Position numbers and translations under genes: made by a program. From the IMG/VR virus record IMGVR_UViG_3300031949_000008, positions 1-64,000 of that record: 64,000 bases of DNA. The stretch is one strand, 5' to 3'. Position 1 is the stretch's first letter; the number at the start of each line of letters is the position of its first letter. Positions 1,258 to 31,932 of the stretch are shown here, piece by piece. A model generated the notes under the pieces. It ran no database searches. It was not told the origin of the DNA and was given only the letters and a program-made list of their open reading frames with translations. The DNA comes from a virus.

Positions 1258-2589
1258 ATTTGCGGAATTCTTGGATTCATCACAGATAAGCCTTCAGCAG
1301 ATAATGCGAAATTTTTTAGACGATTATTACTGTTGTCAGAAAGCAGAGGAGCGGAAGCAACCGGTATCTGTTATAATAAGCAGAATAAAATTGTTATCGC
1401 TAAAGATCCTATATCTGCGTCTGTCTTTCTAAAAGAGATGATGCCAAAACATACTCCCGCTATAGAAAAGACACATGTGGCATTAGGACATACACGTTAT
1501 CCAACTATTGGAAGTCCTAAAGATAATAATAATAACCACCCTATAGAATCACAAAATTGGATTCTTATACATAATGGATCAGTAACATCAATGCCTCGTA
1601 TTAAGGATTATCCCTATAAAGGCCAAGTAGATACAGAAGTTCTATCAAGCTATATTGAAACTTATGGCTTAGAAAAAGGTTTACCTTATGTAGAAAGAGG
1701 ATCAGCGGCTGTAGCTGTTATGAATAAAAAAGATCCTTCTTCTATTTATTTGTGGAGAGAAGCAAGTCCTATTGTTCTAGCATACAATGAAACTTCTTCT
1801 ACACTATTTTTTGCATCACAACGGGATTTTTTGGAACGAAGTTTAGTAAATCTTATTGGATTCTTTTCATCTTTTATAATAAGAGAATTGCCAGCTAATC
1901 AACTTATACATATTACAACCAATCCAGTAAGTATAAAACATATAGGATATATTGAAGTCATGAAGTGGAATCATAATGTACATAACACTTGTATCGCAAA
2001 AGATACAACGAAAATAAATTATAAAAATAATAAAGATCTAGTATTTAATGTAGTAACAAAACGGTGGGAATTACCTGACACAAAGACTAATGTAGTTAAT
2101 ATAGATTCTATTAAAGTAGATCCACCTTTGTTACCAGTACATACGGAAATACAAACAAATATATTATTGAAAAAATTAGGCTTTTCAGAGATAGAAATTA
2201 ATCGTATGACATTTGCTACAAAAACTACAATTTTATACAATAATTATACACCAGAAGAGATTTATATAGACTCAGATGGAAATATAAAGAAATATTTAAA
2301 TGTATCTAATACAGCTGCTACTGCTATAAGTGAAGACTTATCAAATAAATATTATATTGGTGTATCTCATGATTATAAATCATGGATTAAATTAGAAGCT
2401 CCTAATAAAGGACATATATCAATTGATAGTAATCTGATAAAAAAGTGGGATACTACTAAAAAATCACATTTTATTATGACTGTGGATGATGCAGTAAAAG
2501 AGAATTTAATTGATGAAAAAGAACTATGGAGAGAAGAATGTAATATATTAGAACAAGCATTAGAAAATATGCCAGGCTTGGAGGAATAA
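1258..2589 (+). CDS. Class II (Ntn) glutamine amidotransferase with C-terminal extension; ATT start
   Basis: Frame extends to CGILGF at 1261 (N-terminal Cys nucleophile), preceded by ATT and an AAGGAG RBS; motifs SRG, GHTRYPT, NNHP, HNG, VDTE. Confidence 0.85.
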   Translation: MCGILGFITDKPSADNAKFFRRLLLLSESRGAEATGICYNKQNKIVIAKDPISASVFLKEMMPKHTPAIEKTHVALGHTRYPTIGSPKDNNNNHPIESQNWILIHNGSVTSMPRIKDYPYKGQVDTEVLSSYIETYGLEKGLPYVERGSAAVAVMNKKDPSSIYLWREASPIVLAYNETSSTLFFASQRDFLERSLVNLIGFFSSFIIRELPANQLIHITTNPVSIKHIGYIEVMKWNHNVHNTCIAKDTTKINYKNNKDLVFNVVTKRWELPDTKTNVVNIDSIKVDPPLLPVHTEIQTNILLKKLGFSEIEINRMTFATKTTILYNNYTPEEIYIDSDGNIKKYLNVSNTAATAISEDLSNKYYIGVSHDYKSWIKLEAPNKGHISIDSNLIKKWDTTKKSHFIMTVDDAVKENLIDEKELWREECNILEQALENMPGLEE

Positions 2590-2846
2590 TGCCATTAGAA
2601 ATATTAGAGAATAAAGTACTAGTAAAACCTACAATCGTATTTGGCATGTATTCTAATAGAAGATATTATATAATGCCTAATACATGGGATGTATGTCATG
2701 CATGCCTCTCACAACAGTGTGCTAATTTGACAGTTTATGTTAAAGATCCAAAATATCCCAATTCGGTGTACTGTACTAAAATCTGTGTAAGAAAAAATTA
2801 TATAAGGGAGAATGATGATGCAAGCCACATTATGGACGAAGGCTAA
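2589..2846 (+). CDS. Small protein, MPLEILENK-leader family (copy 1)
   Basis: RBS GAGGAA, coupled to the GATase stop; shared N-terminus; Cys-rich body. Confidence 0.7.
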   Translation: MPLEILENKVLVKPTIVFGMYSNRRYYIMPNTWDVCHACLSQQCANLTVYVKDPKYPNSVYCTKICVRKNYIRENDDASHIMDEG

Positions 2847-3249
2847 TATGAAAGTATTGTTAGATAAAGATATGAACATAATTGGATATCAAATAGATGA
2901 ATCATCTTTAAAAATATTAAAAATTTTGGTGCCTGAATATCCATATCCAAATGGTACTAAGAAGACATTAATACTTCCAGATATATATATTAAACTTGTC
3001 TATGAAAAAGAGAAAATTGAGAATGAGTTCGCCAATTTAGTATCATTTGAACTAAATGATTCGTTGTCCATTTTCTATGATAAGATAACATTTAATATTA
3101 AAGAAGCAGTATCTATACAAACAGATGAAAATATGATAGATGATGATGGAAGTACATGTTCAGGATTTTCTCCAACAAGTGAAATATATGAACATACATA
3201 TCTATGTGTTAATTGTGAAAATAAACGATATTGTATACCACAATGTTGA
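2812..3249 (+). CDS. Hypothetical protein with Cys-rich C-terminus
   Basis: ORF track; GGGAG RBS. Confidence 0.55.
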   Translation: MMMQATLWTKANMKVLLDKDMNIIGYQIDESSLKILKILVPEYPYPNGTKKTLILPDIYIKLVYEKEKIENEFANLVSFELNDSLSIFYDKITFNIKEAVSIQTDENMIDDDGSTCSGFSPTSEIYEHTYLCVNCENKRYCIPQC

Positions 3250-3258
3250 GGTGATACA

Positions 3259-4023
3259 ATGAAGAGAATTAAAATAGGTGCCGACCCCGAATTTTGTATC
3301 TTAACTCCTACAAATAAATTACTAAATGCACGTCATATTTGTCTTGATGGTAATAAAAGAAAAAAGTTTGGACGAGAAAATGTAGCATTTGAATTGCGTC
3401 CTGATCCATCATATAATATATTTGTTATAATTGCTAATATTCGTCACCTATTAGTCAATACTATTAATAAATATCCTATATTAAAGAAATGTAAATTTAT
3501 AGCTGGTCATTGTGTTGTAGATCAGCCTATTGGTGGACATATTCATTTTGAGATGGATGGAGATGGTGAATTAAATGATAAATTATTTAAATATTTCATT
3601 GATAAAGTATTATACAGGGGTCTGGCTGAAATTATTGATGATAAACCTGGATTACGAATGCGTAGAAAATATGAATATGGTAAGAGACGAGATTTTAGAA
3701 ATGATAATGGTGTATCTATTGAATATAGATCTTCTATATCCTGGTTATATTCTCCCTCAGTAGCATTTATATATTTAACTTTGGCAAAGATTTGTGGTTT
3801 ACTTTATCTTAATAGATATAAATTTAATATTAATATTGACACTATAAATAATACAAAACGGTCTGGACGCATACTTTTACGTCGGATCATTACATTAGTA
3901 GAATGTCAATATGAATTAATGGAAGAAAAAGATATATATAAATGTGTAGCATTAATAAAACGTTTACCTACGGTTGTTAATATTAATTGGAGTAAAGATT
4001 TTAAATCTAATTGGCAGATTTAA
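3259..4023 (+). CDS. Second phiEco32-like COOH-NH2 ligase type 2
   Basis: KIGADPEF, FELRP, GGHIHF, IEYR motifs. Confidence 0.85.
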   Translation: MKRIKIGADPEFCILTPTNKLLNARHICLDGNKRKKFGRENVAFELRPDPSYNIFVIIANIRHLLVNTINKYPILKKCKFIAGHCVVDQPIGGHIHFEMDGDGELNDKLFKYFIDKVLYRGLAEIIDDKPGLRMRRKYEYGKRRDFRNDNGVSIEYRSSISWLYSPSVAFIYLTLAKICGLLYLNRYKFNINIDTINNTKRSGRILLRRIITLVECQYELMEEKDIYKCVALIKRLPTVVNINWSKDFKSNWQI

Positions 4024-4221
4024 ACTTTATGAGGTATATTATGATATGTTGTATGTGTGGTGAATATTATGATTCTGGAATAGAAGATATTATACATATG
4101 TGCAAAAAATGTAAATTTACAATTGATTCAGATGTTACTACTGTAGCAAATAAAGAAGAGATCAAAGCTATACAGGATCTTATTCACATTGAAGATTTAA
4201 TTGTATGAATGGATGAGAACT

Positions 4222-4377
4222 ATGGCACATATAAATTATAGACGCAAATCTAAAATAAGAAAACCAATTCTACAAAAGCCCAATAAGGTAATACCACCTG
4301 ATTCTCTTTATGATAGAAATAAGGAAAAGAAATATTGGACAAGAGATTGGTTTATGAAGGAAGAAGATTTAATATAG
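4222..4377 (+). CDS. Small basic hypothetical protein (51 aa)
   Basis: Manually translated ATG-TAG ORF (MAHINYRRKSKIRKP...) filling the gap. Confidence 0.45.
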   Translation: MAHINYRRKSKIRKPILQKPNKVIPPDSLYDRNKEKKYWTRDWFMKEEDLI

Positions 4378-4386
4378 GAGGAATTA

Positions 4387-4575
4387 ATGTCTATTAGATT
4401 AATAGCAGTCATAAATATGAAATGTGATAATTGTACATATCAAGATAGAAAAATAGATCTAAGTGCGTCACCATTTCATTCATCTTATAATTTGATAGGA
4501 TTCTGTCATAAGTATAGTGCTTGGGTGACATTACTAAAAGATAAAGAATTTCACATATTAATTTGTGAGGAATAA
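4387..4575 (+). CDS. Small Cys-containing hypothetical protein
   Basis: GGAGG RBS; ORF track. Confidence 0.55.
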   Translation: MSIRLIAVINMKCDNCTYQDRKIDLSASPFHSSYNLIGFCHKYSAWVTLLKDKEFHILICEE

Positions 4576-4794
4576 ATGTCATTAGAAATGTTAGAAAATA
4601 AACAACCTTTATATTATATAAAGCGCACACCATCCGGTACTACGTATCTATCATGTTGTTTTATATGTAATACTGAACTTCAGTATCAGCCTACTTATAG
4701 ACACCTATGTAATCCATGTAGTACTAGTATGAGTTTTAATCATAGAATAAAACTATGGAAAGCAGCTCAAGATAAATATCCTGAATTAATATAA
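4576..4794 (+). CDS. Small Zn-finger-like protein, leader family (copy 2, MSLEMLENK)
   Basis: Shared N-terminus; CxxC...CxxC. Confidence 0.7.
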   Translation: MSLEMLENKQPLYYIKRTPSGTTYLSCCFICNTELQYQPTYRHLCNPCSTSMSFNHRIKLWKAAQDKYPELI

Positions 4795-4812
4795 ATAATA
4801 AAGGAGGATTAC

Positions 4813-5007
4813 ATGTCTTTTAAATTTGTAGTAGAACGTATGCAGAATAATATTACTGTGCATATTCAAGCACAGACTATTGTAGAAGCTCAGAGTATTT
4901 TAGCATTTATCCCTAAAGTCGAGAGAGGAGGAGTTTACCCCTTATATACAGTAGAGGATTTACTTCCACAAGTAATCTCTGATGAAGATGAAAAAGGAGA
5001 CATCTGA
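4813..5007 (+). CDS. Hypothetical protein
   Basis: AGGAGG RBS; ORF track. Confidence 0.55.
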   Translation: MSFKFVVERMQNNITVHIQAQTIVEAQSILAFIPKVERGGVYPLYTVEDLLPQVISDEDEKGDI

Positions 5008-5234: not shown

Positions 5235-5528
5235 ATATCATTAGAAATATTAGAGAATAAAATACCACTTTGGCTTTGTAGATGTAATAGATTTGACTAT
5301 GTAAAAGCATATACTGGTAACGCTTAAAGAAGGAATGAAAGGGCATATGTAACTATTGATTATATACGATTTTTTGATATTAATAAATTTCAGCCAAAAG
5401 AATTAGTACAATTTCAATTTACTCAACATGAATATAACAACAGAGTGTTAGCTGAATATATATGTCCGACATGTAATAGACTATATGCAAGAATAGTAGA
5501 AAATCCTAATTATAAGAAAGAGGACTAA
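5235..5528 (+). pseudogene. Degenerate leader-family ORF (copy 3): ATA at the start position and an internal TAA
   Basis: GAGGAATAA then ATA-TCA-TTA-GAA-ATA-TTA-GAG-AAT-AAA; TAA at 5325-5327; same frame continues to 5528 with CPTC. Confidence 0.6.
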
Positions 5529-5533
5529 ATAAT

Positions 5534-5583: not shown

Positions 5584-6999
5584 TTGATTAGAACTAAGTT
5601 AAGACAATATCAACTAAATAATCTTAAATTTCATTTAACCAAGAATAAATCATTAGATTTTTCAGAAATGGGTTTAGGAAAGACTTTAATCTCATTAAGC
5701 AAAATAGATATTCTACAACGAAAACAATTAATTACAGCCACACTTATTATCTGTTCTAAATCTGTTATACAAGTATGGAAATCAGAAATAGAAAAACATT
5801 CTGATTTTACATATATTATATTAGAAGGATCATTAGAAAATAAAATACGATTATTAACAATAAATTCAAATATTTATCTCATTTCATATGATGCTATTGC
5901 AGGCCGAAAACGTACATTAGGAGTACTATTACATTTTTTATTATTAAAAAAATTTGATATGGTAGTATTGGATGAAATAACTTATGTACAGCATTATAAT
6001 ACATTACGAACAAAAGCTATTACATCATTATGTGACCATATAAAATATAGTATATCCCTGAGCGGAACACCCATCACAAATGCACCAGAGGCTGTTCTAA
6101 CCCTCTTTAGAGTAGCAGATAGTGGTCAGACCTTCGGTAGAAATTATTTTGCAGCCAGAGGGCATTTCTTTAACAATCATGGGTATGGATTCCCTGACTG
6201 GCGATTAAAAGAGGATAGAATAGAAGAATTCCAGCAAAGATTATTTTTTAATGCCGTAAGACTTCTAAAATCAGAATGCCTAGATCTACCAAAAAAGATA
6301 TATACTGAACGATATTCAGAGCTTACGGGAATTCAAAAAGAAATATATGTTAAAGTTGCTGATGAATTATTACGGGAATTGATCTTACCATCTGGCAAAG
6401 TTAAAATACAGAATAGTCTCGTTAAGTTAGCCAAGTTATCGCAAATAACATCTGGTTTTATATATACTGACAGAGAGGTACAACTTTTTCCAGAAAATCC
6501 TAAATTAGAATTATTAAAGGAAGTTCTGACAGAAATTCAAAGTAATGAAAAGATAATTATCTTTGTCAAGTGGCGACAAGATATTATCAATATTTCTAAT
6601 ATGTTAGATAATATAGGAGTAAAATATGTTATATTACAAGGTGCTACAACTGATAGGGCTTCTGTTATTGATAGGTTTAATAGCGAAAGTGGGATTCAAA
6701 TTCTCTTATCCCAAATCACAGTGGGAGCCTTTGGACTTAATCTTACTGTCAGTAGCCATATTTTGTTTTATAGTCTTGGCTTCTCTCTAATAGAGTATTT
6801 ACAATCACAAGATCGAATACACCGTTTAGGACAGACACAACCTTGTATTTATATTAATTTATTATGTAACAAGACCATTGATGAATATGTTTATAATACA
6901 TTACAACAGAAGGTAGATGTGGCTAAATCATTATTAGATAAATCCTACATAGAAAAATTAAAGGAGAGTTTAAATGGGATTAGAAATATTAACAAATAG
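5584..6999 (+). CDS. SNF2-family helicase/ATPase
   Basis: EMGLGKT, LDE, LSGTP, GLNL, QSQDRIHRLGQ motifs. Confidence 0.9.
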   Translation: MIRTKLRQYQLNNLKFHLTKNKSLDFSEMGLGKTLISLSKIDILQRKQLITATLIICSKSVIQVWKSEIEKHSDFTYIILEGSLENKIRLLTINSNIYLISYDAIAGRKRTLGVLLHFLLLKKFDMVVLDEITYVQHYNTLRTKAITSLCDHIKYSISLSGTPITNAPEAVLTLFRVADSGQTFGRNYFAARGHFFNNHGYGFPDWRLKEDRIEEFQQRLFFNAVRLLKSECLDLPKKIYTERYSELTGIQKEIYVKVADELLRELILPSGKVKIQNSLVKLAKLSQITSGFIYTDREVQLFPENPKLELLKEVLTEIQSNEKIIIFVKWRQDIINISNMLDNIGVKYVILQGATTDRASVIDRFNSESGIQILLSQITVGAFGLNLTVSSHILFYSLGFSLIEYLQSQDRIHRLGQTQPCIYINLLCNKTIDEYVYNTLQQKVDVAKSLLDKSYIEKLKESLNGIRNINK

Positions 7000-7306
7000 T
7001 CTAATAGGAATTTGTGTAGGTCAGATATATAAGACATTCGGATCTCCATTTATGCCTAATTCAAGAATAAAAATTACCAACGTAGAATTATGTAAGGAGT
7101 GTCCAGTTAAAACAGATAACCTGACAAGATGTGATCATAATCTTAAACCAGAAAATATGCAAAAACTTGGCATAGTGCCATGCAAGGTAAGTTATGAATA
7201 TCTAGATGATGGTGAGAAATTTACTAGATGCATAGAATCATTTTATAGAGAGCCAGCAACAGCACAATTAATAGGAGAAGATAATGATAAGGAGACAGTT
7301 AGATAG
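6974..7306 (+). CDS. Leader-family protein (copy 4, MGLEILTN)
   Basis: AAGGAG RBS; variant of the shared N-terminus; several Cys. Confidence 0.65.
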   Translation: MGLEILTNSLIGICVGQIYKTFGSPFMPNSRIKITNVELCKECPVKTDNLTRCDHNLKPENMQKLGIVPCKVSYEYLDDGEKFTRCIESFYREPATAQLIGEDNDKETVR

Positions 7307-9184: not shown

Positions 9185-9186
9185 CA

Positions 9187-9332: not shown

Positions 9333-9772
9333 TGACTAAAGAGGAATTAAAACTTTTAAAAATTGAACGCAAAGAAAATCATATGTGTATACACTGTGGT
9401 AAATATTTAGATTCACAAGCAACTCGTGAAACCTGTAATCAATGTAACCGAATAGGACATTTAGCGAATGGAGATGGAGGTTGGCGCTGGAAATTAAATC
9501 GTCAAGTATTGACAGCATATAATAATGTTTGCGCTTGTTGTGGTGAGCGTAACCAATTCTTTTTAACTTTGGATCATAAAGAAGGCGGAGGAAATATACA
9601 TAGAAAAGAAGTACGTAAGATGGGCAGCAATGATTGGTATAAGTGGGTTATAGAAAATAACTTTCCTGAAGAATTTCAACTATTATGTTATAATTGCAAT
9701 TTAGGTAGAGAAAGAAATGGTGGCATTTGTCCACATCATGATGAAAGATTAAAGGAGGATACATGCCTTTAG
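9332..9772 (+). CDS. HNH-type endonuclease
   Basis: CACCGE...LTLDH...QLLCYNCN. Confidence 0.75.
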   Translation: MTKEELKLLKIERKENHMCIHCGKYLDSQATRETCNQCNRIGHLANGDGGWRWKLNRQVLTAYNNVCACCGERNQFFLTLDHKEGGGNIHRKEVRKMGSNDWYKWVIENNFPEEFQLLCYNCNLGRERNGGICPHHDERLKEDTCL

Positions 9773-10059
9773 AAATTTTGGAAAATAAAAAGCAAACTAT
9801 TACTTATGATTATATACGTAAAAATTATAGAGATATAATAAAAACACTTCAGCCACATACTGAAGTTTTGATAGACATGTTTATATATAACGGACATTTT
9901 CCATTTTATCAACATATTATAGAAACTTGTAATACAATTTATGCCAAAATTATTGAAGTAAATATAGAGACTGGTATTTTATTAGAGTTTCCAGATAATA
10001 CTATAAAAGGACATTCAGGTAATCTCCAGGATGGGTCTTCTAATAAATGGTACGCCTGA
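9763..10059 (+). CDS. Leader-family protein (copy 5, MPLEILENK)
   Basis: AGGAGG RBS; shared N-terminus. Confidence 0.7.
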   Translation: MPLEILENKKQTITYDYIRKNYRDIIKTLQPHTEVLIDMFIYNGHFPFYQHIIETCNTIYAKIIEVNIETGILLEFPDNTIKGHSGNLQDGSSNKWYA

Positions 10060-10654: not shown

Positions 10655-11074
10655 ATGTTAATTCTTCAGTGTGATTTTTGTAATCAAATTATTACTAATT
10701 GTACTATAATAAAGTATATACGTTCAATATTTCAATTTTTACATTTTATTCCTTGTTTTATTATCACACGTGGAAATCCAAGAACGAATAGATTATATGC
10801 AACATATCATTTATGTGATGCTTGCTTTGGTAGAATAGAAGAACTTATGTTCAGAAATCCTAATACAATTGAGGAATTACGTCAGCAGTTAAATCAAATG
10901 CGGTTACAGACAGAAAGGCATAATATTCCTCAGCAAACCGGATTCCATCCCCCTCCACCACAATATCCAGAAGCAGAAGCAATTCCTGCTTGGGGGGTTG
11001 GCAATCCTCTTCGTTATCGTATTAATGCTGCATTAGATACAACAGAAGATGCGCCTGGAGTTAATAATGAGTAA
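10655..11074 (+). CDS. Hypothetical protein with CxxC pairs
   Basis: AGGAGG RBS; ORF track. Confidence 0.6.
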   Translation: MLILQCDFCNQIITNCTIIKYIRSIFQFLHFIPCFIITRGNPRTNRLYATYHLCDACFGRIEELMFRNPNTIEELRQQLNQMRLQTERHNIPQQTGFHPPPPQYPEAEAIPAWGVGNPLRYRINAALDTTEDAPGVNNE

Positions 11075-13775
11075 CGCTCTAGAATATGTATCATCAAAGC
11101 AACTACTATTCAAACTTGCGTATAGTAAAGATGGACATGAAATTATATTAAAATACTGTCCTTATTGTCATGATAATAATTTTCATGTATACCTTAACGA
11201 AAATACAGAAGTATTTTATTGCCATAAATGTCAAATAGGTGGAACATTATTAACTTTTAAAGAAAAACTTGGAGATTTAATGGCTCCTGTTTCATTTCAG
11301 GATTTGAATATTGATAAAGAAACTATACAATTAGCACCTGAACATTTATTACAAGTACAAGAAGCACATGATCGTCTATTACATGACAAAGAGACATTGT
11401 GGTATCTCTCCTCCCGGCGCTGGACACTGGAGGCTGTTCAGTATTTCAAGTTAGGATTATCAGAAGAAGAGGGAATTAAATGGCTTCATTATACAATTTT
11501 CTCTAATGGTAATCTTAAAAATGTTAAAATGAGGACTCTGCCTCCTGCTGAACGCAGATTTAAACGTCTGTTCGGTGGAGAGTCCTTACTATTTAATGTA
11601 GATATTTTATTAGAAAATCCTGAATATATTATCATTTGTGAAGGTGAAGCAGATGCAATATCTGTGTGGAGTAAGGGATTTCATAATGTCATTGGCGCAA
11701 CAGTAGGTGCAGGTGTAATTAAACCTGAATGGATAGACCAATTAGATAAATGTAAACAAATTATATTTGTATATGATAATGATGATGCTGGCCAAAATGG
11801 GGCACAGAAATTTGCTTCACGATTAGGAATAGAAAGGTGTAAAAATATCTTATTACCTAGTGGCTATAAAGATATTAATGAATATTTTATAGCAGGTAAA
11901 ACAGCACAAGATTTTCAAAAATTAATAGATAACGCTGAACCATTTGGTGTAGAAAACGTCTTATCATTAGGTAATATTATACGAAATACTATTCGTAAAT
12001 TGAATTCTGAAGATAGAGAAGATAGATTAGAATTACCCTGGAAAAATGTTAATCGACTTATCAATGGTTTTGAACCAGGTGATCTTATTGTTGTAGCAGC
12101 TAAACCAAAAGTAGGAAAATGTCTTGGTAAAGATACATCTGTATTAATGTATGATGGAACAAGTAAATTAGTACAAGATATAAGGGAAAATGATTTATTA
12201 ATGGGAGATGATTCAACACCACGAACTGTATTAGAAACTACACATGGATTGGATACATTATATAAAATATCATATAAAGGTGGATCATATGTTGTTAACA
12301 ATAATCATATATTATCTTTAATGTGGAGCAAGAATGTTTATTCTCGATATAGAAAACATGGAGATATTATTGATATATCAATAGACCAATATTTAAAATT
12401 AAATAAAACACAACAGATAAATTGGAAAGGATATAGAGTTAAAGTAGATTTTCATAAAAATAATCAGTTACCAATACCTCCACGTATGCTTGGTATTTGG
12501 TTAGGAGATGGGACATCTACTGCACCAAATATAACAAATATAAATATAGAGATAATAAATTACTGTAGAGATTATGCAGAAAGTATAAATATACCATTCA
12601 AAAAAACTTCAGCAAAATATGGTTGGAGTATTTCTAATAATAGGCAAGGAAATCATCAACATCGCCCAAATATATTTTTACAACATTTACAGAAACTGCA
12701 ATTAATTAATAATAAACATATACCATATATTTATAAAGTGACAGATAGAATAGGTAGACTTGAATTATTAGCAGGTTTGATTGATACTGATGGTAATATT
12801 TATAAGTATGGGTACGAAATAGTCAGTAAATTTGATACATTAGCAAATGATATAATATTTGTAGCACGATCTTTAGGATTTGTAGCCAATAAAAATATTC
12901 GATATATCAAACAGAAACCATATTATGTTATACATATTTCTGGCGAACATATTAATGATATTCCTGTATTAATAAAATATAAACAACGTACATATGAAAT
13001 ACGCACAAGAGATGCGTTAATCAATAGTATCCATATTACCAAACTGCCTATTGGAGAATATTTTGGGTTTGAATTAGATGGTAATGGTAGATTTTTATTA
13101 GGTGATTTTACTGTTACACACAATTCAAGTTTTGCATTTGATATGTTATATTATTTTTCTACACATGAAATACCATCTCTATTGTTCTCATTAGAAATGG
13201 CAACATGGAGAATATTACCTAGATTAGTTGCGTTACATAAACGTAAAGATTCTAGAGATTGTAATTCTGCTATAGTTTTAGCTGAAGCATATAAAGAATT
13301 GAACGATGTACCATTATATTTTGCCTATAAATATATGAAACCTAACTGGAATTTTGTTGCAGACACAGTTAGACATTCTGTACGTCACTATGGTATACGT
13401 TTTATGGTATTTGATAATCTACATTTTCTATGTAGATCGTTAACAAAACAAACAGAAGAGGTCTCAGTAATGAGTCAGAATTTTAAATTACTGGCTGAAG
13501 AATTGGCCTTACCTATTGTATTAATTGCCCGTCCAAGAAAAACAAATTCTAAAATTATTAGTGGTGAAGATCTAAAAAATTCTTCGGATATTGAAGGTGA
13601 TCTTGATATACTTATTACTCTTAGTCGTGAACGTAAAAAAAGTATAAGTGGTGAAGAAATCGAAGGAGCATTTGAATCACAGACATTAATAGATATACCA
13701 GCATGTCGTTATGCTCCAGGAGGTTCTACATATTTATATGCTAACGATGCTGAATGTAGATTTGATGAATTATAA
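11067..13775 (+). CDS. Bifunctional DNA primase/DnaB-like helicase, intein-containing
   Basis: CPYC/CHKC Zn finger, TOPRIM EGEAD and DNDDAG, Walker A AKPKVGK|S, FSLEM, FDNLH; start at 11067 (GGAG RBS) or 11049. Confidence 0.92.
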   Translation: MSNALEYVSSKQLLFKLAYSKDGHEIILKYCPYCHDNNFHVYLNENTEVFYCHKCQIGGTLLTFKEKLGDLMAPVSFQDLNIDKETIQLAPEHLLQVQEAHDRLLHDKETLWYLSSRRWTLEAVQYFKLGLSEEEGIKWLHYTIFSNGNLKNVKMRTLPPAERRFKRLFGGESLLFNVDILLENPEYIIICEGEADAISVWSKGFHNVIGATVGAGVIKPEWIDQLDKCKQIIFVYDNDDAGQNGAQKFASRLGIERCKNILLPSGYKDINEYFIAGKTAQDFQKLIDNAEPFGVENVLSLGNIIRNTIRKLNSEDREDRLELPWKNVNRLINGFEPGDLIVVAAKPKVGKCLGKDTSVLMYDGTSKLVQDIRENDLLMGDDSTPRTVLETTHGLDTLYKISYKGGSYVVNNNHILSLMWSKNVYSRYRKHGDIIDISIDQYLKLNKTQQINWKGYRVKVDFHKNNQLPIPPRMLGIWLGDGTSTAPNITNINIEIINYCRDYAESINIPFKKTSAKYGWSISNNRQGNHQHRPNIFLQHLQKLQLINNKHIPYIYKVTDRIGRLELLAGLIDTDGNIYKYGYEIVSKFDTLANDIIFVARSLGFVANKNIRYIKQKPYYVIHISGEHINDIPVLIKYKQRTYEIRTRDALINSIHITKLPIGEYFGFELDGNGRFLLGDFTVTHNSSFAFDMLYYFSTHEIPSLLFSLEMATWRILPRLVALHKRKDSRDCNSAIVLAEAYKELNDVPLYFAYKYMKPNWNFVADTVRHSVRHYGIRFMVFDNLHFLCRSLTKQTEEVSVMSQNFKLLAEELALPIVLIARPRKTNSKIISGEDLKNSSDIEGDLDILITLSRERKKSISGEEIEGAFESQTLIDIPACRYAPGGSTYLYANDAECRFDEL
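12120..13124 (+). mobile_element. Intein (335 aa) with LAGLIDADG endonuclease in the helicase Walker A
   Basis: Starts CLGKDT, ends VTHN followed by Ser; LGIWLGDG and LAGLIDTDG blocks. Confidence 0.92.
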
Positions 13776-13783: not shown

Positions 13784-13972
13784 ATGCCATTAGAAATCTT
13801 GATTAATCAGTCTAAACTATATCAATGCCCTAGAAAAGATAGATGTGATCAAAATTTTTCAGGTATAGGAAAAGGAACATGCAGACATACAAAACCACAT
13901 GAATTTATAATGTATGAATGTACATCTGATAATTGTAAAAATGCTTCTGGTGCGACATGTATAAGAATTTAA
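13784..13972 (+). CDS. Leader-family Cys-rich protein (copy 6, MPLEILIN)
   Basis: AAGGAG RBS; shared N-terminus; 6 Cys. Confidence 0.7.
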   Translation: MPLEILINQSKLYQCPRKDRCDQNFSGIGKGTCRHTKPHEFIMYECTSDNCKNASGATCIRI

Positions 13973-13982: not shown

Positions 13983-14123
13983 ATGCCATTAGAAATTTTA
14001 GAAAACAAAGAGTCAGAATGTTTTACACTATGTGCAGAAGATTTTTATAAAGAGGGAATTTTAGCCGGAAGCAAAGATAGTCAGACGATAATGGTATATA
14101 TAAAGGAGAAAAATACTATCTAA
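13983..14123 (+). CDS. Leader-family protein (copy 7, MPLEILENKESEC..., 46 aa)
   Basis: Manually translated; AAGGAG RBS; below the ORF-track cutoff. Confidence 0.65.
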   Translation: MPLEILENKESECFTLCAEDFYKEGILAGSKDSQTIMVYIKEKNTI

Positions 14124-15236: not shown

Positions 15237-18200
15237 TTGACTGAATGCCAAGATTGTGATTTGTATCTAACTTGTATTCATCCTAATATTCCAGTAGAAG
15301 GCGATTCAGAAACTGCTGAAGTTCTCATTTGTGGCGAAGGCCCTGGTTCAGATGAAGATATAGCACAACGTCCATTCGTAGGAGATTGTGGGCGACTGTT
15401 ACGTAAAGCCATAAAATTAAATAAGATTATTAATATCTGTATTGTTAATACAGTTAGATGTCGCCCACCTAATAATGCTGATCCTACAATCAAACAGATT
15501 AGGGCATGTTTTCCTAAGACATTGGAATTAATAAAGAATATGCCTAATTTGAAATTAATTGTTCCAGTCGGTAATGTAAGTTTAAGAGCTTTCACTGGCA
15601 AACAGGGCATCACAAAAGCTTCTGGTACAGAAATAGAATGGAATAATATGAAAATGATGCCTCTTCTACATCCTGCTGCAATTCTTTATGATCACAGATA
15701 TCTAAAAGTTTTTAATGATCATGTGGCCAGAATTCCTAATATTTTAAATAAATCTGCAACTATTGATAATGATCGTGGACTTTATACAAGAATTAATACA
15801 TTAGATGATTGGAAAGAATTATATAGACATATTTTACGAAAGAGATATTTTACTTATGATTTAGAAACAACCGGCTTAAATCCATTTCAGGAAGATCAAC
15901 GAATAAAATTAATTACATTCTCTATCGAACCTCGTACTGCCACTGTTCTATCTATAGATCAATGGTGGGATACTGAAGATTGGACTTATATTTATCGTGA
16001 TCTTACTCAGATATTTGAAGATAAAACAATAGGTAAGATCGGAACTAATATCAAATATGATAATTTATGGATGAAAGTTATTTTGGATATAGATGTAAAG
16101 GGAACTATTGGAGATATTGCACTTTCACAATATACAATATTTCCTCATGTCTCAAATGATTTAAAGTCGATGGCTTGGCAATATTCAAATTTAGGTGACT
16201 ATTCTAAAATATTAGAAGGTGTACCTGTTCAAGATGCTGAAGGCCCTACACTTGAAAAATATTCCAGTATTGATTCAGATTTGACAAATAGAATTTATAT
16301 TATTCATAATAAGATGTTTGAAGATGAACCTATTTTATCTAATGCTTATAAAAATATTCTAATACCTGTATCTGATGTACTATGCAAAATGGAGTATAAT
16401 GGTATTAGAGTTAATCCACCACGTTTACATATTGCAAGACAGACGACCAAGAAAATCGTAGCAGAAACATTACATGATATAATGCGACATCCTACTATTA
16501 TAAAATATCAGAAAGATAAAGATATTGAATTTAATCCTAATTCTCATACACAATTAGGAGATATTTTCTATAGTAAAAAATATGAGAATCTTGAACCTAC
16601 TATTCTTACAAAGAAAGCAAAGAAACCTGCGACTTCACAAGAAGTTTTTAAGATATATAAAGATTCAAATGGATTAGCAAACCTCTTTTATACTTATTCA
16701 CGTTATCTTACAATGGATAAAACATTTGAAGAGATAAAAAATAATCTAACCATAGATCATAGAGTACATACCAACTATTGGATTTCCTCAACAAAATCAG
16801 GACGTAGTAGTTGTGTTTCAACTGATGCGGAGATATTAACTGCTTCTGGTTGGAAAAAATATAATGAAATTATAATTGGTGAATTAGTGTTAGGATATGA
16901 TATCCTTAAAAAAGAATTAAAACTTACACCACTTAATAATATACATATTGGAAAAGGTATACTAGGAACATTAGATTATATATATGGTAAAATACGTAAA
17001 GTAGGTACAAGATGTACACCAGAACATAAATGGCTAGTAGAAGATAAATTTATTACTGGATATATAGAAGCGCAAAATGCAGATAAAACTAAACAAGGTA
17101 CAGGAAGAACAAGAAATAATAGTTATAATTTAATATTACGATCAGAAAATCCAGCGTCATTTGGTGATGATAATGATTATATTAGAGCAGGAATTATTGG
17201 CTGGGCTTTAACAGATGGAGATATAAATAGTACATCAAAAGATAGATATTCTTTAGAAATAACTTTAGTTAAAGAGCAAAGTATAGCAGCAGTAAGAAAA
17301 TTACTTACTGAGGGGCATATACCCTTTACAGAAAGTTCTTATAGTTATAAACATAAAGAGCGTGGAGATAAAAAAACATCTTTTAAATTTAAAAATATAA
17401 AAAGGATAAGATTTTATATTGGTGTTGCTACTTTTTCTTCTATATGGTTGCATTATTTGACATATCAAAATTTGACATCATATGTGATTGCTTTATCATA
17501 TAAAGCAAGACAATATATGTGGGATGCTATGATGGAAGCAGATGGTGCAACAAAACAATTAGGAGGCCATAGTAAATACTATAGATTTGGGTCAGCCAAA
17601 TCTTCATCTATATTTAAGTCTGAAAATTGTGGAGATGGCTTTGCAGCACTATCTGTCCTTTTGGGGCATTTTGTTCATTATAGACAACGACAACGGAGTA
17701 AAAATCAGAAACCATTTATAGATTATGAAATTGCTACTGTTATAAAAAGACATGCAAAAAGATATAGTATCATAAATAATGAGCAGCAAGATGTATGGTG
17801 CCCAGAAACAGGGACTGGAAATTGGATTATAAAACAAGATGGATTTATAGGAATTACAGGAAATTCACGTGATCCTAATCTTCAAAAATTACCTAAAGGA
17901 GAGAAAGATTTAACAGGACTACGTGCAGCATTTATAGCAGATCCTGATCACTATCTAGTTGAGATGGATTTCGGGCTTCATGAGCTTCGTTGTATGGCAG
18001 AACAAGCTAATGATGATATAATGCGGGCTGCTCTAGCAAAAGATATCCATAAAGTTACTACTGCTGACATCTTACGCATTCCATTAGATCAAGTTACAGA
18101 TGATCAAAGGACCCGTATAGGTAAGAAGATAAACTTTAGCATCATATATCTTAAATCTGCATGGGGATTAGCCAGAGATTTAAAGATTTCAGAGAAAGAG

Positions 18201-18653
18201 GCCCAAAATTATCTTAATTCATTTTTCCTTACATATAGACAAACTAAGAAATATATTGACGATACGATCCAGTTTGTAAAAGAACATGGTTATATTTTAC
18301 TACGTTCTGGCTTTAAGAAATATTATCCAGCTGAAGAAGGATTAACAGATCATGAAATTAGATCTGCGTTTAATGCTACAATTCAAGGATTAGCTGGTCA
18401 TATTCTATTTATGGCATTAATTGAAATAGATAAGTTTCTTGTAGAGAATAATCTCAAATCATTTCTTACATTAGAAGTGCATGATTCAGTTGTAATAAAT
18501 CTACATAAAACAGAATTAAATATTATTCCTGATTTAGTAAATGTAATGATAAATGCAGTTTATAAATATATTCCTGATTGGAAAACCCCTTTAGTAGCTG
18601 ACGTGAAAATTGGTCTAGATTGGGGACATATGCAAAAATATGAGGTAAAATGA
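15237..18653 (+). CDS. polA: Family A DNA polymerase with N-terminal family-4 uracil-DNA glycosylase domain, 3'-5' exonuclease and intein
   Basis: UDG: CxxC, GEGPG, RPFVG, RCRPP, HPAA; exo YDLETTG; TKSGRSS|SRDPNLQ, motif A DFGLHELR, motif C EVHDS. Confidence 0.92.
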   Translation: MTECQDCDLYLTCIHPNIPVEGDSETAEVLICGEGPGSDEDIAQRPFVGDCGRLLRKAIKLNKIINICIVNTVRCRPPNNADPTIKQIRACFPKTLELIKNMPNLKLIVPVGNVSLRAFTGKQGITKASGTEIEWNNMKMMPLLHPAAILYDHRYLKVFNDHVARIPNILNKSATIDNDRGLYTRINTLDDWKELYRHILRKRYFTYDLETTGLNPFQEDQRIKLITFSIEPRTATVLSIDQWWDTEDWTYIYRDLTQIFEDKTIGKIGTNIKYDNLWMKVILDIDVKGTIGDIALSQYTIFPHVSNDLKSMAWQYSNLGDYSKILEGVPVQDAEGPTLEKYSSIDSDLTNRIYIIHNKMFEDEPILSNAYKNILIPVSDVLCKMEYNGIRVNPPRLHIARQTTKKIVAETLHDIMRHPTIIKYQKDKDIEFNPNSHTQLGDIFYSKKYENLEPTILTKKAKKPATSQEVFKIYKDSNGLANLFYTYSRYLTMDKTFEEIKNNLTIDHRVHTNYWISSTKSGRSSCVSTDAEILTASGWKKYNEIIIGELVLGYDILKKELKLTPLNNIHIGKGILGTLDYIYGKIRKVGTRCTPEHKWLVEDKFITGYIEAQNADKTKQGTGRTRNNSYNLILRSENPASFGDDNDYIRAGIIGWALTDGDINSTSKDRYSLEITLVKEQSIAAVRKLLTEGHIPFTESSYSYKHKERGDKKTSFKFKNIKRIRFYIGVATFSSIWLHYLTYQNLTSYVIALSYKARQYMWDAMMEADGATKQLGGHSKYYRFGSAKSSSIFKSENCGDGFAALSVLLGHFVHYRQRQRSKNQKPFIDYEIATVIKRHAKRYSIINNEQQDVWCPETGTGNWIIKQDGFIGITGNSRDPNLQKLPKGEKDLTGLRAAFIADPDHYLVEMDFGLHELRCMAEQANDDIMRAALAKDIHKVTTADILRIPLDQVTDDQRTRIGKKINFSIIYLKSAWGLARDLKISEKEAQNYLNSFFLTYRQTKKYIDDTIQFVKEHGYILLRSGFKKYYPAEEGLTDHEIRSAFNATIQGLAGHILFMALIEIDKFLVENNLKSFLTLEVHDSVVINLHKTELNIIPDLVNVMINAVYKYIPDWKTPLVADVKIGLDWGHMQKYEVK
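16812..17864 (+). mobile_element. Intein (351 aa) in DNA polymerase
   Basis: Starts CVSTDAEIL, TPEHKW block B, GWALTDG and MMEADG LAGLIDADG-like blocks, ends ITGN followed by Ser. Confidence 0.9.
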
Positions 18654-20823: not shown

Positions 20824-21126
20824 ATGCCTTTTGTAACAAAACATCGACGAGAAATAATAGATAAAAAAGGACTGATGGCTTTAGATAAGATAGAACCAGG
20901 TGATAGATGCTATTATTATTATAGGGATATGGTGAAAAGATGGAAAGCAAACCCTAGATGGACTACTGCACATGAAATTTATATGGGTATGCAATCTTAT
21001 TTTCGTAATGTATATCATGTGGGTGATAATGATAGAGCAGCATATGAATTAGCTTGGCAGATTTTCTTTATATGGTATGTAGTGCCTTATGAGAGAGAAG
21101 CTGAAACCAAGAATGGGACAATATGA
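20824..21126 (+). CDS. Conserved phage protein (DUF6899-like)
   Basis: MPF start, PGD..Y, C-terminal PYE...KNG. Confidence 0.5.
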   Translation: MPFVTKHRREIIDKKGLMALDKIEPGDRCYYYYRDMVKRWKANPRWTTAHEIYMGMQSYFRNVYHVGDNDRAAYELAWQIFFIWYVVPYEREAETKNGTI

Positions 21127-21246: not shown

Positions 21247-21681
21247 ATGTTAAAATTATATTTAGCACATCCAGTAACAATGCGTAAGGAGATCAGGCAA
21301 TTAGAATTAGAAATTGAGAAACAGACAGGTATAGAATTGATTAATCCGTTCTATGATACAGAAAGAGATGATATAGAAAAAATTGATTCTGGTCAAATTA
21401 CAAGAGAATCAGCATCTCTAAATCCTGGAAATATTGTAGGAAAAGATTTAGGTCAGATTACTATGACAGATGGAGTAGTTGCATATCTTACTAAAGAAAC
21501 GCATCAGATAGGAACGATATGTGAGATTTGGTATTGTTCTCAGCAAGCACATAAACCAATATATGTAGTTTCAACTGATTGTTTAATGCATCCTTGGGTG
21601 AGATTTATGGTTGAGTCTTCGGGTGGTAAAGGTTTTAATAAATGGGAAGAATTTATTGGATGGGTGGAGGATAATATATGA
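21247..21681 (+). CDS. Nucleoside 2-deoxyribosyltransferase/dNMP N-glycosidase family
   Basis: YLAHP, INPF, D..Q, GTICEI motifs. Confidence 0.75.
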   Translation: MLKLYLAHPVTMRKEIRQLELEIEKQTGIELINPFYDTERDDIEKIDSGQITRESASLNPGNIVGKDLGQITMTDGVVAYLTKETHQIGTICEIWYCSQQAHKPIYVVSTDCLMHPWVRFMVESSGGKGFNKWEEFIGWVEDNI

Positions 21682-21905
21682 TAGGGTGGATTTTTGCTGG
21701 AATATCTATTATAGGATGTTTATTAAACATTAATAAAATTATATGGTGTTGGTTAGTTTGGACAGTAGCTTCTATTGGCATGACTATTATTAATTATAAT
21801 GCTGGTCGATGGGATCAGATGACGGCTTGGGGAGTTTATATACCTATGAATATTTATGGTTACTATCAGTGGAGGAAAGATGAACATAGGATGGGAAACA
21901 CTTGA
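21678..21905 (+). CDS. Short PnuC-like membrane transporter
   Basis: Three TM helices; WLVW and NIYGYYQW. Confidence 0.65.
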   Translation: MIGWIFAGISIIGCLLNINKIIWCWLVWTVASIGMTIINYNAGRWDQMTAWGVYIPMNIYGYYQWRKDEHRMGNT

Positions 21906-22014
21906 ATGGTTATTTACAAATATTGTACCTTGGGTAATGCTTTTTTGTATATTCATGATTATAGTAACTAGTATTTGGCAAGCTCAGTGGAATGAAAAAG
22001 GAGGAAAGATGAAC
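21871..22014 (+). repeat. 15-bp direct repeat GGAGGAAAGATGAAC (21871-21885 and 22000-22014)
   Basis: Exact repeat read from the sequence; each copy is an RBS plus ATG. Confidence 0.8.
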
Positions 22015-22476
22015 GAAACAAATGAAGGCAAGAAAAATGATACTGGAAAACTACGCTGGGATCTTCTTCCAGAGCGTCCAATGGAAGAAGTTGTATATGT
22101 ATACACTATAGGAGCAAATAAATATACTAGTAACAATTGGAGAACAGGTATTAAATGGGGTCGGATATTTGCAGCTATGATGCGGCATGCGTGGGCTTTT
22201 TGGAGAGGAGAAGATCGAGATAAAGAAGATGGGCAGTTGCATTTAGCGTCTGTAGTATGGTGCGCTTTAACACTTATGGAGTATAGTAAAACTCATCCAG
22301 AATTAGATGATCGAGTAAAGGAGAGAGAGGAGAAGGAAAAGAAAGTGGACTGGTTAGATTTTAGTACTGACTGTGGTTTTAGTGGATGTAGAGCTATTAC
22401 ACATCAAGTAAATCATGCATTTTGTAGAAAGCATCAGAAATATTATGAGAATAAAGGAGAGTATAAAGATGTTTAA
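22009..22476 (+). CDS. dATP/dGTP diphosphohydrolase domain (DUF5664) protein
   Basis: KNDTGKLRWDLLP, GANKY..NW, AMMRH, HLAS; possible in-frame upstream start at 21880. Confidence 0.85.
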   Translation: MNETNEGKKNDTGKLRWDLLPERPMEEVVYVYTIGANKYTSNNWRTGIKWGRIFAAMMRHAWAFWRGEDRDKEDGQLHLASVVWCALTLMEYSKTHPELDDRVKEREEKEKKVDWLDFSTDCGFSGCRAITHQVNHAFCRKHQKYYENKGEYKDV

Positions 22477-27774: not shown

Positions 27775-27775
27775 T

Positions 27776-28374: not shown

Positions 28375-28531
28375 TGGGAACTGGAACTTTAGCATATTGT
28401 CATAAATGTCATAAAGAACTTGAAGAATATAAACTAAATTCTGAAACTGGTATGTGTTATGAATGTGATGAAGGAATAGATGATAATGTTGATAATGGAT
28501 TTCCTCCAGAAGATATATAAAGGATAAAGAA

Positions 28532-28894
28532 CTGTCTAAAATAATTGGTATAGTAGGAACACGTAGAAGAGATTCAGAAGAAGATTTTGAAAAAGTAAAA
28601 GAAAAGTTTCTTGAAATCTATGAATCTGGAGATACTATATGTTCTGGTTTATGTCCAAAGGGTGCTGATAGATTTGCTGTACTTTTGGCTACACAATATA
28701 AAACTAAAACTATTTGGTATCCTGCCGATTGGAATCAATATGGTAAAGCTGCTGGTTTTATAAGAAATACATATATTGCCAGAGATTCTGATGTCTTAAT
28801 CGCATGTGTCGCCGATGATAGAATAGGTGGAACAGAAGACACTATACGAAAATATTTGAAAACTGGTAAAACTAATTTAATAATAATAGAATAA
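28532..28894 (+). CDS. SLOG/YspA (DUF2493)-family protein; probable CTG start
   Basis: Frame extends upstream to KIIGIVGTR...SGLCPKGAD; PADW..YGKAAGFIRN, GGT. Confidence 0.8.
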   Translation: MSKIIGIVGTRRRDSEEDFEKVKEKFLEIYESGDTICSGLCPKGADRFAVLLATQYKTKTIWYPADWNQYGKAAGFIRNTYIARDSDVLIACVADDRIGGTEDTIRKYLKTGKTNLIIIE

Positions 28895-28949
28895 AGGATA
28901 AATAATGCCATATAAAGATCATGAAAAACAATTACAATAAGGAGAGTAC

Positions 28950-29966: not shown

Positions 29967-30160
29967 AACATTTAAAAAGATTAGGTGGTGGTTTTATACT
30001 ATTAATCTGTATGAGTGTTATATTGGCAATCTTTATTAGTATAATAGCAGGAATAGACTACTTGATACGTACCGGACAATGGCAGATTCCAACTATAATT
30101 ATTGGAATGATATGTGTATCTTATTTTTTAGGATGGCTTTCTAACGCTGAAAATATATGA
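29963..30160 (+). CDS. Small two-TM membrane protein
   Basis: Two hydrophobic segments. Confidence 0.6.
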   Translation: MKHLKRLGGGFILLICMSVILAIFISIIAGIDYLIRTGQWQIPTIIIGMICVSYFLGWLSNAENI

Positions 30161-30375
30161 AATCTAGACCTATAAATTATAAACGTTCCGTACTTAAAGG
30201 ACTTATATGGGAGTCCTTTTCTTTTATCATCTTGTTTTTCGCAGTTTATTTTGTATTTAAGGATGGAGCACCTAGGTCATTAGCATTTACCTTAATATTA
30301 ACTATGATTAAGGTGCCATTCTATGTAGGACATGAGAAAATCTGGAAATATATCAATTATGGTAAGAGGAAATAA
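30157..30375 (+). CDS. DUF2061-like membrane protein
   Basis: RSVLKGLIW...YVGHEKIW. Confidence 0.65.
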   Translation: MKSRPINYKRSVLKGLIWESFSFIILFFAVYFVFKDGAPRSLAFTLILTMIKVPFYVGHEKIWKYINYGKRK

Positions 30376-30792
30376 ATGAGAACTGCTCAACAAGAACGAG
30401 ATTTATATAAGAATAATCCTCAATTTAGAAAAAATAAATTAAAATCAGCTAAGAAATACAGAGAATCTCATAGAGAAAAAATGAACAAAATTGCGCAAAA
30501 TCACCGTCGTTATAAAAAGATTCTTTGGGAAATGATATTAACTGAATTAGGTTTAAATAAATGTTCTAAATGTGGCTATGATTTATGTATTGCAGCTTTA
30601 GATTTTCATCATGAGAATCCAGAAACAAAAGATTTTTCACTTGCTGAATTTAGACGGCAATCTCCAACTGCTAAAAATGTTAAGAAATTTAAAGAAGAAG
30701 CCCTTAAAGGTCAGGTTCTTTGTGCAAATTGTCATAGAGAACTACATTTTGGTAATCCTTATGTTCTTGCTTTTTTCCGATCTACATGCTGA
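30376..30792 (+). CDS. HNH endonuclease
   Basis: CSKCGY...ALDFHH...VLCANCHRELH. Confidence 0.85.
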   Translation: MRTAQQERDLYKNNPQFRKNKLKSAKKYRESHREKMNKIAQNHRRYKKILWEMILTELGLNKCSKCGYDLCIAALDFHHENPETKDFSLAEFRRQSPTAKNVKKFKEEALKGQVLCANCHRELHFGNPYVLAFFRSTC

Positions 30793-31744
30793 TAATTATA
30801 GACTATTTTCGACCATTCTTGAGAATGGACTAAATAGTAGATTAGTGGCACAAACTAAAATAATTAATCAAGTTAAATTAATTGCCAGAAAATATAAAGT
30901 AACACAAATATTCTTTTTGGGTGATCTCTTTAACAATCAAAGCCCTAATATTAATAAGATATTATATAATGTGTTATTTTTTATGATACAATCATTGGCA
31001 GAAGTTGTACCTATTTGTTTACTTACCGGCAACCATGATTTGTTCAACAACACTCATTTGTTTACTCCATTTTCTTCTATCCCAAATGTAACTATAATCA
31101 ATAATGTTACAACTATACAACTAGATGGGAAAACTATAGATCTTATTCCATGGGTCTTAAACGACCCAGGACACTTACCAGTTAAGAAATCTGATTATTG
31201 TTTCGCTCATTTCGGTATTCAAGGTGCAGATATAGGTAATAATTTTGTTATAGAAGAAGCTATTGATCCTGTGACATTAAAAGATTATAAGTTAGTGTTA
31301 GCTGGTCATTTTCACACCAGACAACAAGTAGCTGATAATGCTTATCAAATAGGTTCTATTATGGCAAATTCATTTAAAGATTATTTACATGAAGATAAAG
31401 GTGTATGGATATTAGATCCTACTGATGATAAATTAACATTTATACCAATAGCATCTCCTAAATTCCATACACTTGAATTCTTTAAACAAGAACAGATAGA
31501 TACATTTAAATTTAATCCGAATGATTATTATCGAGTTATATTAAAAAGTGATAATTTGCTTATCCATAATGCCAATAATGTAATTACAGAGTTCGATTAT
31601 GATCAGGCCATAATAGAAGATATAGTAGATACGTCAGACATAACCAATTTGCTGCCGATCATAAGTGAGTTTATAGAAAAGAGTAATACATCACTTCCGA
31701 AAGATATTCTTATTAAAAAAGCAATTGAATTATTGGAGGTTTAA
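30761..31744 (+). CDS. sbcD: SbcD/Mre11-like metallophosphoesterase nuclease
   Basis: SDLH, GDLF, GNHD, AH, GHFH motifs; ATG at 30761. Confidence 0.88.
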   Translation: MFLLFSDLHADNYRLFSTILENGLNSRLVAQTKIINQVKLIARKYKVTQIFFLGDLFNNQSPNINKILYNVLFFMIQSLAEVVPICLLTGNHDLFNNTHLFTPFSSIPNVTIINNVTTIQLDGKTIDLIPWVLNDPGHLPVKKSDYCFAHFGIQGADIGNNFVIEEAIDPVTLKDYKLVLAGHFHTRQQVADNAYQIGSIMANSFKDYLHEDKGVWILDPTDDKLTFIPIASPKFHTLEFFKQEQIDTFKFNPNDYYRVILKSDNLLIHNANNVITEFDYDQAIIEDIVDTSDITNLLPIISEFIEKSNTSLPKDILIKKAIELLEV

Positions 31745-31932
31745 TGCCATTAGAAATATTGGAGAATCCAAAACGGACAGATCATGATAAAGAATATAAA
31801 GATGCACATCTTATTAACGAATTAAATAGACTATATGATAATACAAGATTACAACAAGTAAATATATATAATTATAGACCTGTTTATACATTCTGGTATT
31901 TGGGTGGCACTAATGGGACTACTGCTGTATGA
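31744..31932 (+). CDS. Leader-family protein (copy 8, MPLEILENP)
   Basis: GGAGG RBS; lies between sbcD and sbcC. Confidence 0.7.
   Translation: MPLEILENPKRTDHDKEYKDAHLINELNRLYDNTRLQQVNIYNYRPVYTFWYLGGTNGTTAV

Follow-up and report, generated by a model that had tools for sequence, protein, structure and literature searches.

The window analyzed here, the first 64 kb (64,000 nucleotides) of the virus record IMGVR_UViG_3300031949_000008 (hereafter G000; 110,227 bp in total), raises the question of why small proteins whose bodies look unlike one another should begin with the same nine residues, MPLEILENK or a close variant. The record has a G+C content of 32% and a completeness of 98% as judged by CheckV. 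The answer proposed below is that this N-terminal tag may be a recognition label, anchored at the protein terminus and read by one common putative partner. This reading is held tentatively, at not far short of an even chance. It is preferred because the tag is anchored at residue 1, selection acts on the peptide, carriers are restricted to non-late accessory genes, the cargo is mixed, and each lineage has one consensus.

A sequence-only reading of the window had listed eight tag sites. All eight were recovered on the + strand, each 5–9 nt after a Shine-Dalgarno sequence of the GGAG type. Seven of these are intact open reading frames (ORFs) of 46–110 aa, while the eighth, at 5235, has ATA in the start position and two in-frame stops and is therefore regarded as a gene that decayed recently without losing its tag. 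The scan of the full genome proposed in that reading carried the motif past the window, with five more canonical and two variant copies, for a total of 12 canonical M[PSGV]LE[IM]LxN starts and two variants, or 14 tagged genes (Table 1). As had been supposed, the motif is commoner at N-termini than chance allows. From amino-acid composition, only about 0.0005 occurrences of xLE[IM]LxN at residues 2–8 are expected in 181 genes, against 12 canonical starts found. By a position-weight score, these 12 starts reach at least 21 and the next best candidate start 3.4. In a crude gene call the canonical tag lies on 11 of 68 small + strand genes and on none of the 33 small − strand genes; the call missed 102765, and adding this gene and the two variants to the 11 gives the 14. 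The tag begins at residue 1 in every copy, and all of the tagged genes are encoded by the + strand, within the non-late block. The virion genes of G000 are on the − strand.

Relatives were gathered by alignment of homologues of the G000 SNF2 helicase, yielding four viral contigs (G001–G004) and further metagenome fragments; contigs of closer helicase relatives, at 62–66% identity, stand outside this comparison (Logan, ENA, NCBI). No close phage relative of G000 was found in GenBank, and a scan of 185,579 species genomes returned neither a host clue nor a close relative. The contig names of the relatives suggest that the clade comes from sediment. The relatives have tag versions of their own. 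In G003 (helicase identity 46%, G+C 43.5%) the tag reads M[EQDK][LIKTM]SxN, or more narrowly M[EQ][IL]SKN[KR], and is carried by about 35 of 176 genes, including an 810-aa DNA polymerase, and in G004 (44%, G+C 39%) it is MKIL plus a polar residue on about 14 genes. Two genes of the fragment G002 (56%, G+C 40%) begin with MKLxFLxN. Two short contigs add MKP[IV]xN, typified by MKPIKN, on five consecutive genes after the helicase (L221; 46%, G+C 42%) and MKxI[KE]N on two genes (L222; 45%, G+C 41%). The closest genome, G001, which is complete (59%, G+C 34%), has no tag family and a single relic, MLIELIKNK. The versions share a core composed of a hydrophobic residue (or Ser), a charged residue and Asn. 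The Asn, which is residue 6 of the 7-mer type and residue 8 of the 9-mer type, never varies in G000 or G003 but is sometimes missing in G004. Full-text literature searches found no description of such tags.

An unbiased test counted the gene pairs that share at least four of residues 2–8 and compared them with internal control positions. There were 63 such pairs in G000, 225 in G003 and 56 in G004, versus 4–11 at the internal controls; G001 gave 9 pairs versus 9 in the control. Around homologous helicases, at most four pairs were present per locus in 75 of 77 viral loci and in 59 of 61 metagenome loci, where the exceptions were G004 and a near-copy of G004. The effect is therefore specific to the clade and no artefact of gene calling. 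An apparent excess of shared C-termini was set aside as low-complexity acidic sequence overlapping the Shine-Dalgarno sequence or tag of the next gene. Scans of IMG/VR with tag-derived DNA returned one match to a degenerate pattern, which falls within a tail gene but in a frame that is not coding, and only single-copy hits to a near-exact 17-mer among the matches listed.

Four orthologous families each carry the tag that is resident in their genome; thus, the tags change in concert. A double-CxxC zinc-ribbon family begins with MSLDFIKNK in G000 (104358), METSKNK in G003 and MKIILNK in G004. A six-Cys family with the pattern C..C..CxH..PH begins with MPLEILINQ in G000 (13784), MKLKFLPNH in G002 and an ME[IL]SKN-type tag in its seven G003 members. 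Two homologues of 6974 (P0123 and P0124) start with MSLEILINK and MALEILINN; the LEILxN portion is invariant while the whole proteins are 49–51% identical. In the fourth family, 4576 is paired with its G001 orthologue, which starts with the relic noted above. The tag of the G003 DNA polymerase, MDISQNV, is a seven-residue N-terminal add-on relative to the G000 enzyme and stands before the CxxC motif.

The sequence-only reading had also held that a constant N-terminal leader is maintained on variable cargo by selection on the peptide rather than as a DNA repeat, and the codon data agree, since codon families vary while the residues are kept. Information content climbs from the A of the ATG onward and is back to background past codon 8–9; upstream, only the Shine-Dalgarno sequence is conserved. 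Across codons 2–9 conservation is lowest at the third positions (0.77 vs 1.25 and 1.14 bits), and it is neither independent of codon position nor spreads into non-coding DNA. The G000 copies alternate between TCA and AGT for Ser and among TTA, TTG, CTA and CTG for Leu. The first ten codons of the paralogues 102564 and 102765 show three synonymous changes and no non-synonymous ones, whereas identity over the full lengths is 47%. In G003 the tag Ser, which is invariant, is encoded 17 times by AGY and 15 times by TCN, and the tag Leu comes from five codons. In G004 codon sharing among the copies is not above the prediction from genome codon usage (0.34 vs 0.38). The G003 and G004 data are strong evidence, on sequence grounds, for selection at the amino-acid level. 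Embedded stop codons were considered as the cause of the invariant Asn and rejected, AAC being used at about the genome-wide rate.

Behind the tag, the bodies were described in the sequence-only reading as unrelated and often Cys-rich. The first description holds for most of them, the exceptions in G000 being the BLASTP paralogues 4576 and 109351, and 102564 and 102765. The second is true of seven of the 12 canonical bodies, which have at least four Cys (the other five have 0–2), but is hardly distinctive, as untagged small + strand proteins are nearly equal in Cys content (4.5% vs 3.5%). Altogether, BLASTP sorts the 63 tagged proteins of five genomes into 55 clusters, and most of the proteins are ORFans. 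The tagged genes of G000 with homologues elsewhere are 4576 and 109351 (in G001), 104358 (in G003 and G004) and 6974 (two metagenome proteins); a homologue search with the 4576 protein returned only the query. Nothing rose above the cut-off in Pfam for all 14 tagged proteins, in PHROGs for the seven in the window, or in PADLOC for ten, with one sub-threshold zinc-ribbon hit for 104358. Many of the bodies are small, Cys-rich, zinc-ribbon-like modules, others are free of Cys, and the body of one G003 tagged protein reads as having transmembrane segments. An AlphaFold2 model of the six-Cys family (13784) left residues 1–10 without secondary structure at a predicted local distance difference test score (pLDDT) of about 50, which is weak evidence given a model mean of 63. 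The model of the 6974 family (pLDDT = 42) was unusable.

The + strand block of G000 encodes two phiEco32-type COOH-NH2 ligases, a GATase, a SNF2 helicase, a ParB-like protein, an intein-bearing primase-helicase, a UDG-PolA fusion, a gp32-like single-stranded DNA-binding protein (SSB), a RecA-like protein and Mre11/Rad50-like proteins; radical-SAM enzymes are encoded as well. No tag was found on the helicase, primase-helicase, SSB-like or RecA-like genes, and several tagged genes are translationally coupled to replication genes. All of the tagged genes in G003 and G004 lie outside the blocks that are homologous to the G000 virion genes. In distant relatives (helicase 40% identical), small paralogues on contigs L225 and L226 start with MKKM[MI]CP[NG]W; this group looks like a plain paralogue family and not a tag on unlike bodies.

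Table 1. Tagged genes, related families and other features. Positions without a contig prefix are those of G000; the window ends at 64,000.
Feature	Coordinates	Strand	Length (aa)	N-terminus	Remarks
Tagged ORF 1	2589..2846	+	85	MPLEILENK	
Tagged ORF 2	4576..4794	+	72	MSLEMLENK	two CxxC motifs; paralogue of 109351
Decayed copy	5235..5528	+		ISLEILENK	ATA for ATG; in-frame stops at codons 31 and 98
Tagged ORF 3	6974..7306	+	110	MGLEILTNS	
Tagged ORF 4	9763..10059	+	98	MPLEILENK	stop of upstream ORF at tag nt 8–10
Tagged ORF 5	13784..13972	+	62	MPLEILINQ	member of six-Cys C..C..CxH..PH family
Tagged ORF 6	13983..14123	+	46	MPLEILENK	
Tagged ORF 7	31744..31932	+	62	MPLEILENP	between Mre11-like and Rad50-like genes
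Canonical copies beyond window	102564, 102765, 105117, 108756, 109351	+			
Variant copy beyond window	104358	+		MSLDFIKNK	
Variant copy beyond window	99395	+		MTLKILHNS	
Six-Cys family, other members	L101:2860-3063; seven ORFs in L088 and L093				
Nine tagged genes in tandem	L088 (G003), about 2100-5000	−	61–95		
Conserved protein	20824-21126	+	100	MPFVT	pattern MPFVT...PYE...NG; 46–53% identical in G003 and G004; no known family
ClpP-like gene	90253-90708	−	253		outside window; sole such gene in G000
MKKM[MI]CP[NG]W paralogues	L225 ~2129-2480; L226 2609-2900			MKKM[MI]CP[NG]W	
Primase-helicase	11049-13775	+			Toprim and DnaB_C domains
Family A DNA polymerase	15237-18653	+			N-terminal uracil-DNA-glycosylase-like domain; CxxC motif at start
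Nucleoside 2-deoxyribosyltransferase-like gene	21247-21681	+			
dATP/dGTP diphosphohydrolase-like gene	21856-22476	+			

With these features in mind, the 7–9 residues at the extreme N-terminus would serve as a protein-level recognition tag on fast-evolving, mostly small accessory proteins of the early and middle phases. One common partner would read the tag, so that unlike proteins are handled alike. Such a single reader is presumed to exist and to co-evolve with the tag. It would engage the free N-terminus and set the fate of the protein, either as an AAA+ unfoldase or protease responsible for timed removal or as a chaperone-like handler, and might be supplied by the host or be one of the conserved proteins of the phage. 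A fate-setting reader of this kind is favored because the motif is always terminal and the cargo is mixed, with zinc-ribbon-like proteins, an apparently membrane-spanning protein and a DNA polymerase among the carriers. A localization or packaging signal is less likely. In its broadest form, the proposal is that an uncultured phage clade runs an undescribed N-terminal tag-and-reader system on 8%–20% of its genes, co-evolving with a single putative reader that gives the carriers one fate, whether timed destruction, chaperoning or delivery. The chance of this broader proposal is put at somewhat short of even. Under this proposal the carriers would be early accessory proteins with a fast turnover, joined in one lineage by the DNA polymerase.

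Known systems offer partial precedents for such a label. The nearest working analogue would be N-terminal degrons of the transferable kind, for instance the lambda O tag. The lambda O tag is an N-terminal ClpX degron (N-motifs 1–3) and can be transferred to other proteins (PMC12723719). The likeness would lie in a short, unstructured and movable peptide at a free N-terminus that imposes a common fate on many proteins (PMC12723719), though a match of the tag to the published motif classes could not be shown. A second precedent is the N-terminal extension cleaved by Prp, which occurs on ribosomal protein L27 and on the capsid and scaffold proteins of phage 80alpha, so that here too one N-terminal sequence on non-homologous phage proteins is read by a single host enzyme (PMC5744158). 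The Prp motif differs in ending in an F/A cleavage site 13–14 residues in and in being found on structural proteins (PMC5744158). F-A occurs in none of the tags, which were found only on non-late proteins.

Several observations weigh against a co-evolving reader. Phyletic profiling of the relatives with tblastn gave no gene that tracks the tags, and no reader was found. The closest complete relative, G001, is nearly tag-free and keeps the same core genes; therefore, the tag is dispensable for this type of phage. The 7-mer and 9-mer types differ by two residues, which is awkward and hard to square with gradual co-evolution. Codon identity among the tag copies is somewhat above the codon-usage prediction in both G000 (0.70 vs 0.54, P = 0.002) and G003 (0.51 vs 0.39, P = 0.0002), from which it follows that the 5' ends partly share DNA ancestry. 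Birth and death of 5' ends, or past gene conversion blurred by synonymous drift, could mimic co-evolution.

The profiling returned two G000 genes that are present in G003 and G004 yet missing from G001. The first, the conserved protein at 20824-21126, was rejected as a candidate reader since a distant G001 homologue could be recognized by eye. The other is a dATP/dGTP pyrophosphohydrolase and was likewise rejected.

The main rival explanation, unlikely but the most serious of those considered, replaces the reader with an inherited expression slot. The Shine-Dalgarno sequence, the ATG and the first 7–9 codons would be passed on as a start cassette while the bodies are replaced or evolve rapidly, and the first residues would be kept since translation yield depends on the nascent N-terminal peptide or on the initiation region. 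A tag locked to the start codon, carriers that are ORFans with rapid turnover, and the near absence of tags from G001 all fit this explanation. Codon identity above expectation in G000 and G003 fits as well, being a sign that the 5' ends have a common origin. That a core enzyme, the G003 polymerase, is tagged along with a protein that reads as transmembrane also counts in favor of this explanation.

The arrangement of the start regions also speaks for the start cassette, since upstream stops often fall within the tag, which thereby doubles as a coupling junction. In G000, the start of the first copy (2589) overlaps the GATase stop as TAATG, in line with the coupling noted in the sequence-only reading; the start of 31744 overlaps the stop of its upstream gene in the same way, and the stop of the SNF2 helicase falls within the tag of 6974 (nt 24–26). 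G003 has ten cases of an upstream stop at tag nt 18–20 and G004 has seven ATGA overlaps. Within the tandem run of G003, several genes share exactly 20 nt with their neighbor; the TAG or TAA that stops the upstream gene is then embedded in the Asn-Arg/Lys codons of the tag that follows, and the overlapping upstream proteins end in ...KE.

What tells against the start cassette is that selection acts at the level of amino acids and not RNA, as seen in the exchange of AGY and TCN for Ser and of TTA and CTN for Leu. The Asn stays constant throughout G000 and G003, even when it is encoded as AAC, which removes the embedded stop. A general expression slot also accounts less well for the lack of tags on late-block genes and on most of the core replication genes, and for the way in which orthologues each take on the tag of the genome that harbors them.

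Common descent provides a further, doubtful account in which the tagged genes are one old multigene family whose N-terminus evolves most slowly, with no shared handling of the products. The occurrence of several small groups of paralogues and of tandem arrays, above all at 2–5 kb in G003, is consistent with such a relic, as are the residual codon sharing and the resemblance of many bodies to small zinc-binding modules. The number of BLASTP clusters is difficult to reconcile with one family, particularly when some members have no Cys, an apparent transmembrane stretch, or the body of a polymerase. In addition, a neutral remnant would not stay invariant while the bodies diverge past recognition, nor would it drift to one consensus per genome.

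Capsid targeting of the T4 type, put forward in the sequence-only reading, is improbable. In this explanation the tag would bring effectors into the prohead, where the prohead protease would cut after (L/I)xE. The T4 internal proteins IPI–III and Alt carry a capsid targeting sequence of the same architecture, in which about 10 N-terminal residues suffice to package unlike cargo (PMC9026906). The likeness extends to the sharing of such a segment by otherwise dissimilar, fast-evolving phage proteins and to its being transferable in principle. ILE-N fits the cleavage motif in six of the 12 intact copies; in the other six, E7 is replaced by T, I or N, and in the tags of the relatives the corresponding position is occupied by K, R, S or L. 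No match to a prohead protease of the gp21 type (PF03420) or the S78 type (PF04586) was found in the whole genome, where a divergent protease is possible. The sole ClpP-like gene, whose product begins with what reads as a lipoprotein signal, is peculiar to G000 and has no counterpart in the four relatives. With the cleavage site in only half of the copies, no protease found and the carriers non-late, the proposal of T4-like targeting and cleavage is not supported. All of the tagged genes are in early or middle blocks, several being coupled to replication genes, and the tag is on 8–20% of all genes rather than on a handful. As many as 35 packaged species would be a large number for a phage of about 100 kb, and would include the polymerase and the apparently membrane-spanning protein.

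Even less probable is a role as the leader of a ribosomally synthesized and post-translationally modified peptide (RiPP), or as a handle by which the COOH-NH2 ligases, the GATase or the radical-SAM enzymes would modify Cys-rich bodies. A conserved N-terminal segment followed by hypervariable and often Cys-rich sequence, in many paralogous genes per genome, does recall RiPP precursors. The Cys-rich majority of bodies, the presence of all three kinds of enzyme in the genome, and the coupling of the first copy to the GATase lend this explanation some appeal. Tags and candidate maturases do not go together across genomes, however. The ligases and the GATase, which the sequence-only reading had suggested might read the leader, are present in the nearly tag-free G001 and were not detected in the tag-rich G003, so that this suggestion fails. 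G001 likewise has the radical-SAM genes, which were not detected in the tagged G004. The tag, at only 7–9 residues, is far shorter than a typical leader. The five Cys-poor bodies argue against such modification, and bodies of 40–130 aa that are whole small proteins, let alone a polymerase or an apparently membrane-spanning protein, are no RiPP cores.

Least probable of all is a DNA or RNA element that is translated incidentally, such as a recombination boundary, a protein-binding site or the operator of a translational repressor, for while the G000 DNA is fairly uniform, with TTAGAAAT nearly invariant, conservation is codon-periodic, starts exactly at the ATG and has no upstream part save the Shine-Dalgarno sequence, synonymous sites are scrambled in G003 and G004 with the peptide kept, and the two IMG/VR scans with DNA patterns gave only single chance matches among the matches listed.

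If the recognition-label reading is true, one short peptide would control the fate of a large share of the least understood genes of the phage. The tag would then be a handle with which to find the carriers, pull down their common partner, and route foreign proteins in the same manner. Since the tags mark rapidly evolving early proteins, the carriers are likely candidates for host takeover or counter-defence that lie beyond the reach of homology search. The concerted change of the tag between lineages would also be a rare natural data set on the evolution of a short linear motif and its reader.

Two further observations concern the neighboring genes of the + strand block. The primase-helicase is split by an intein with a LAGLIDADG homing endonuclease; the Hint domain spans residues 358–455 and the Hom_end domain residues 565–632. 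Downstream, the nucleoside 2-deoxyribosyltransferase-like gene adjoins the dATP/dGTP diphosphohydrolase-like gene, which matches PF18909 (E = 3e-32) and is present in G003 and G004 and not in G001. This gene pair is suggestive of a non-canonical base in the DNA of the phage.

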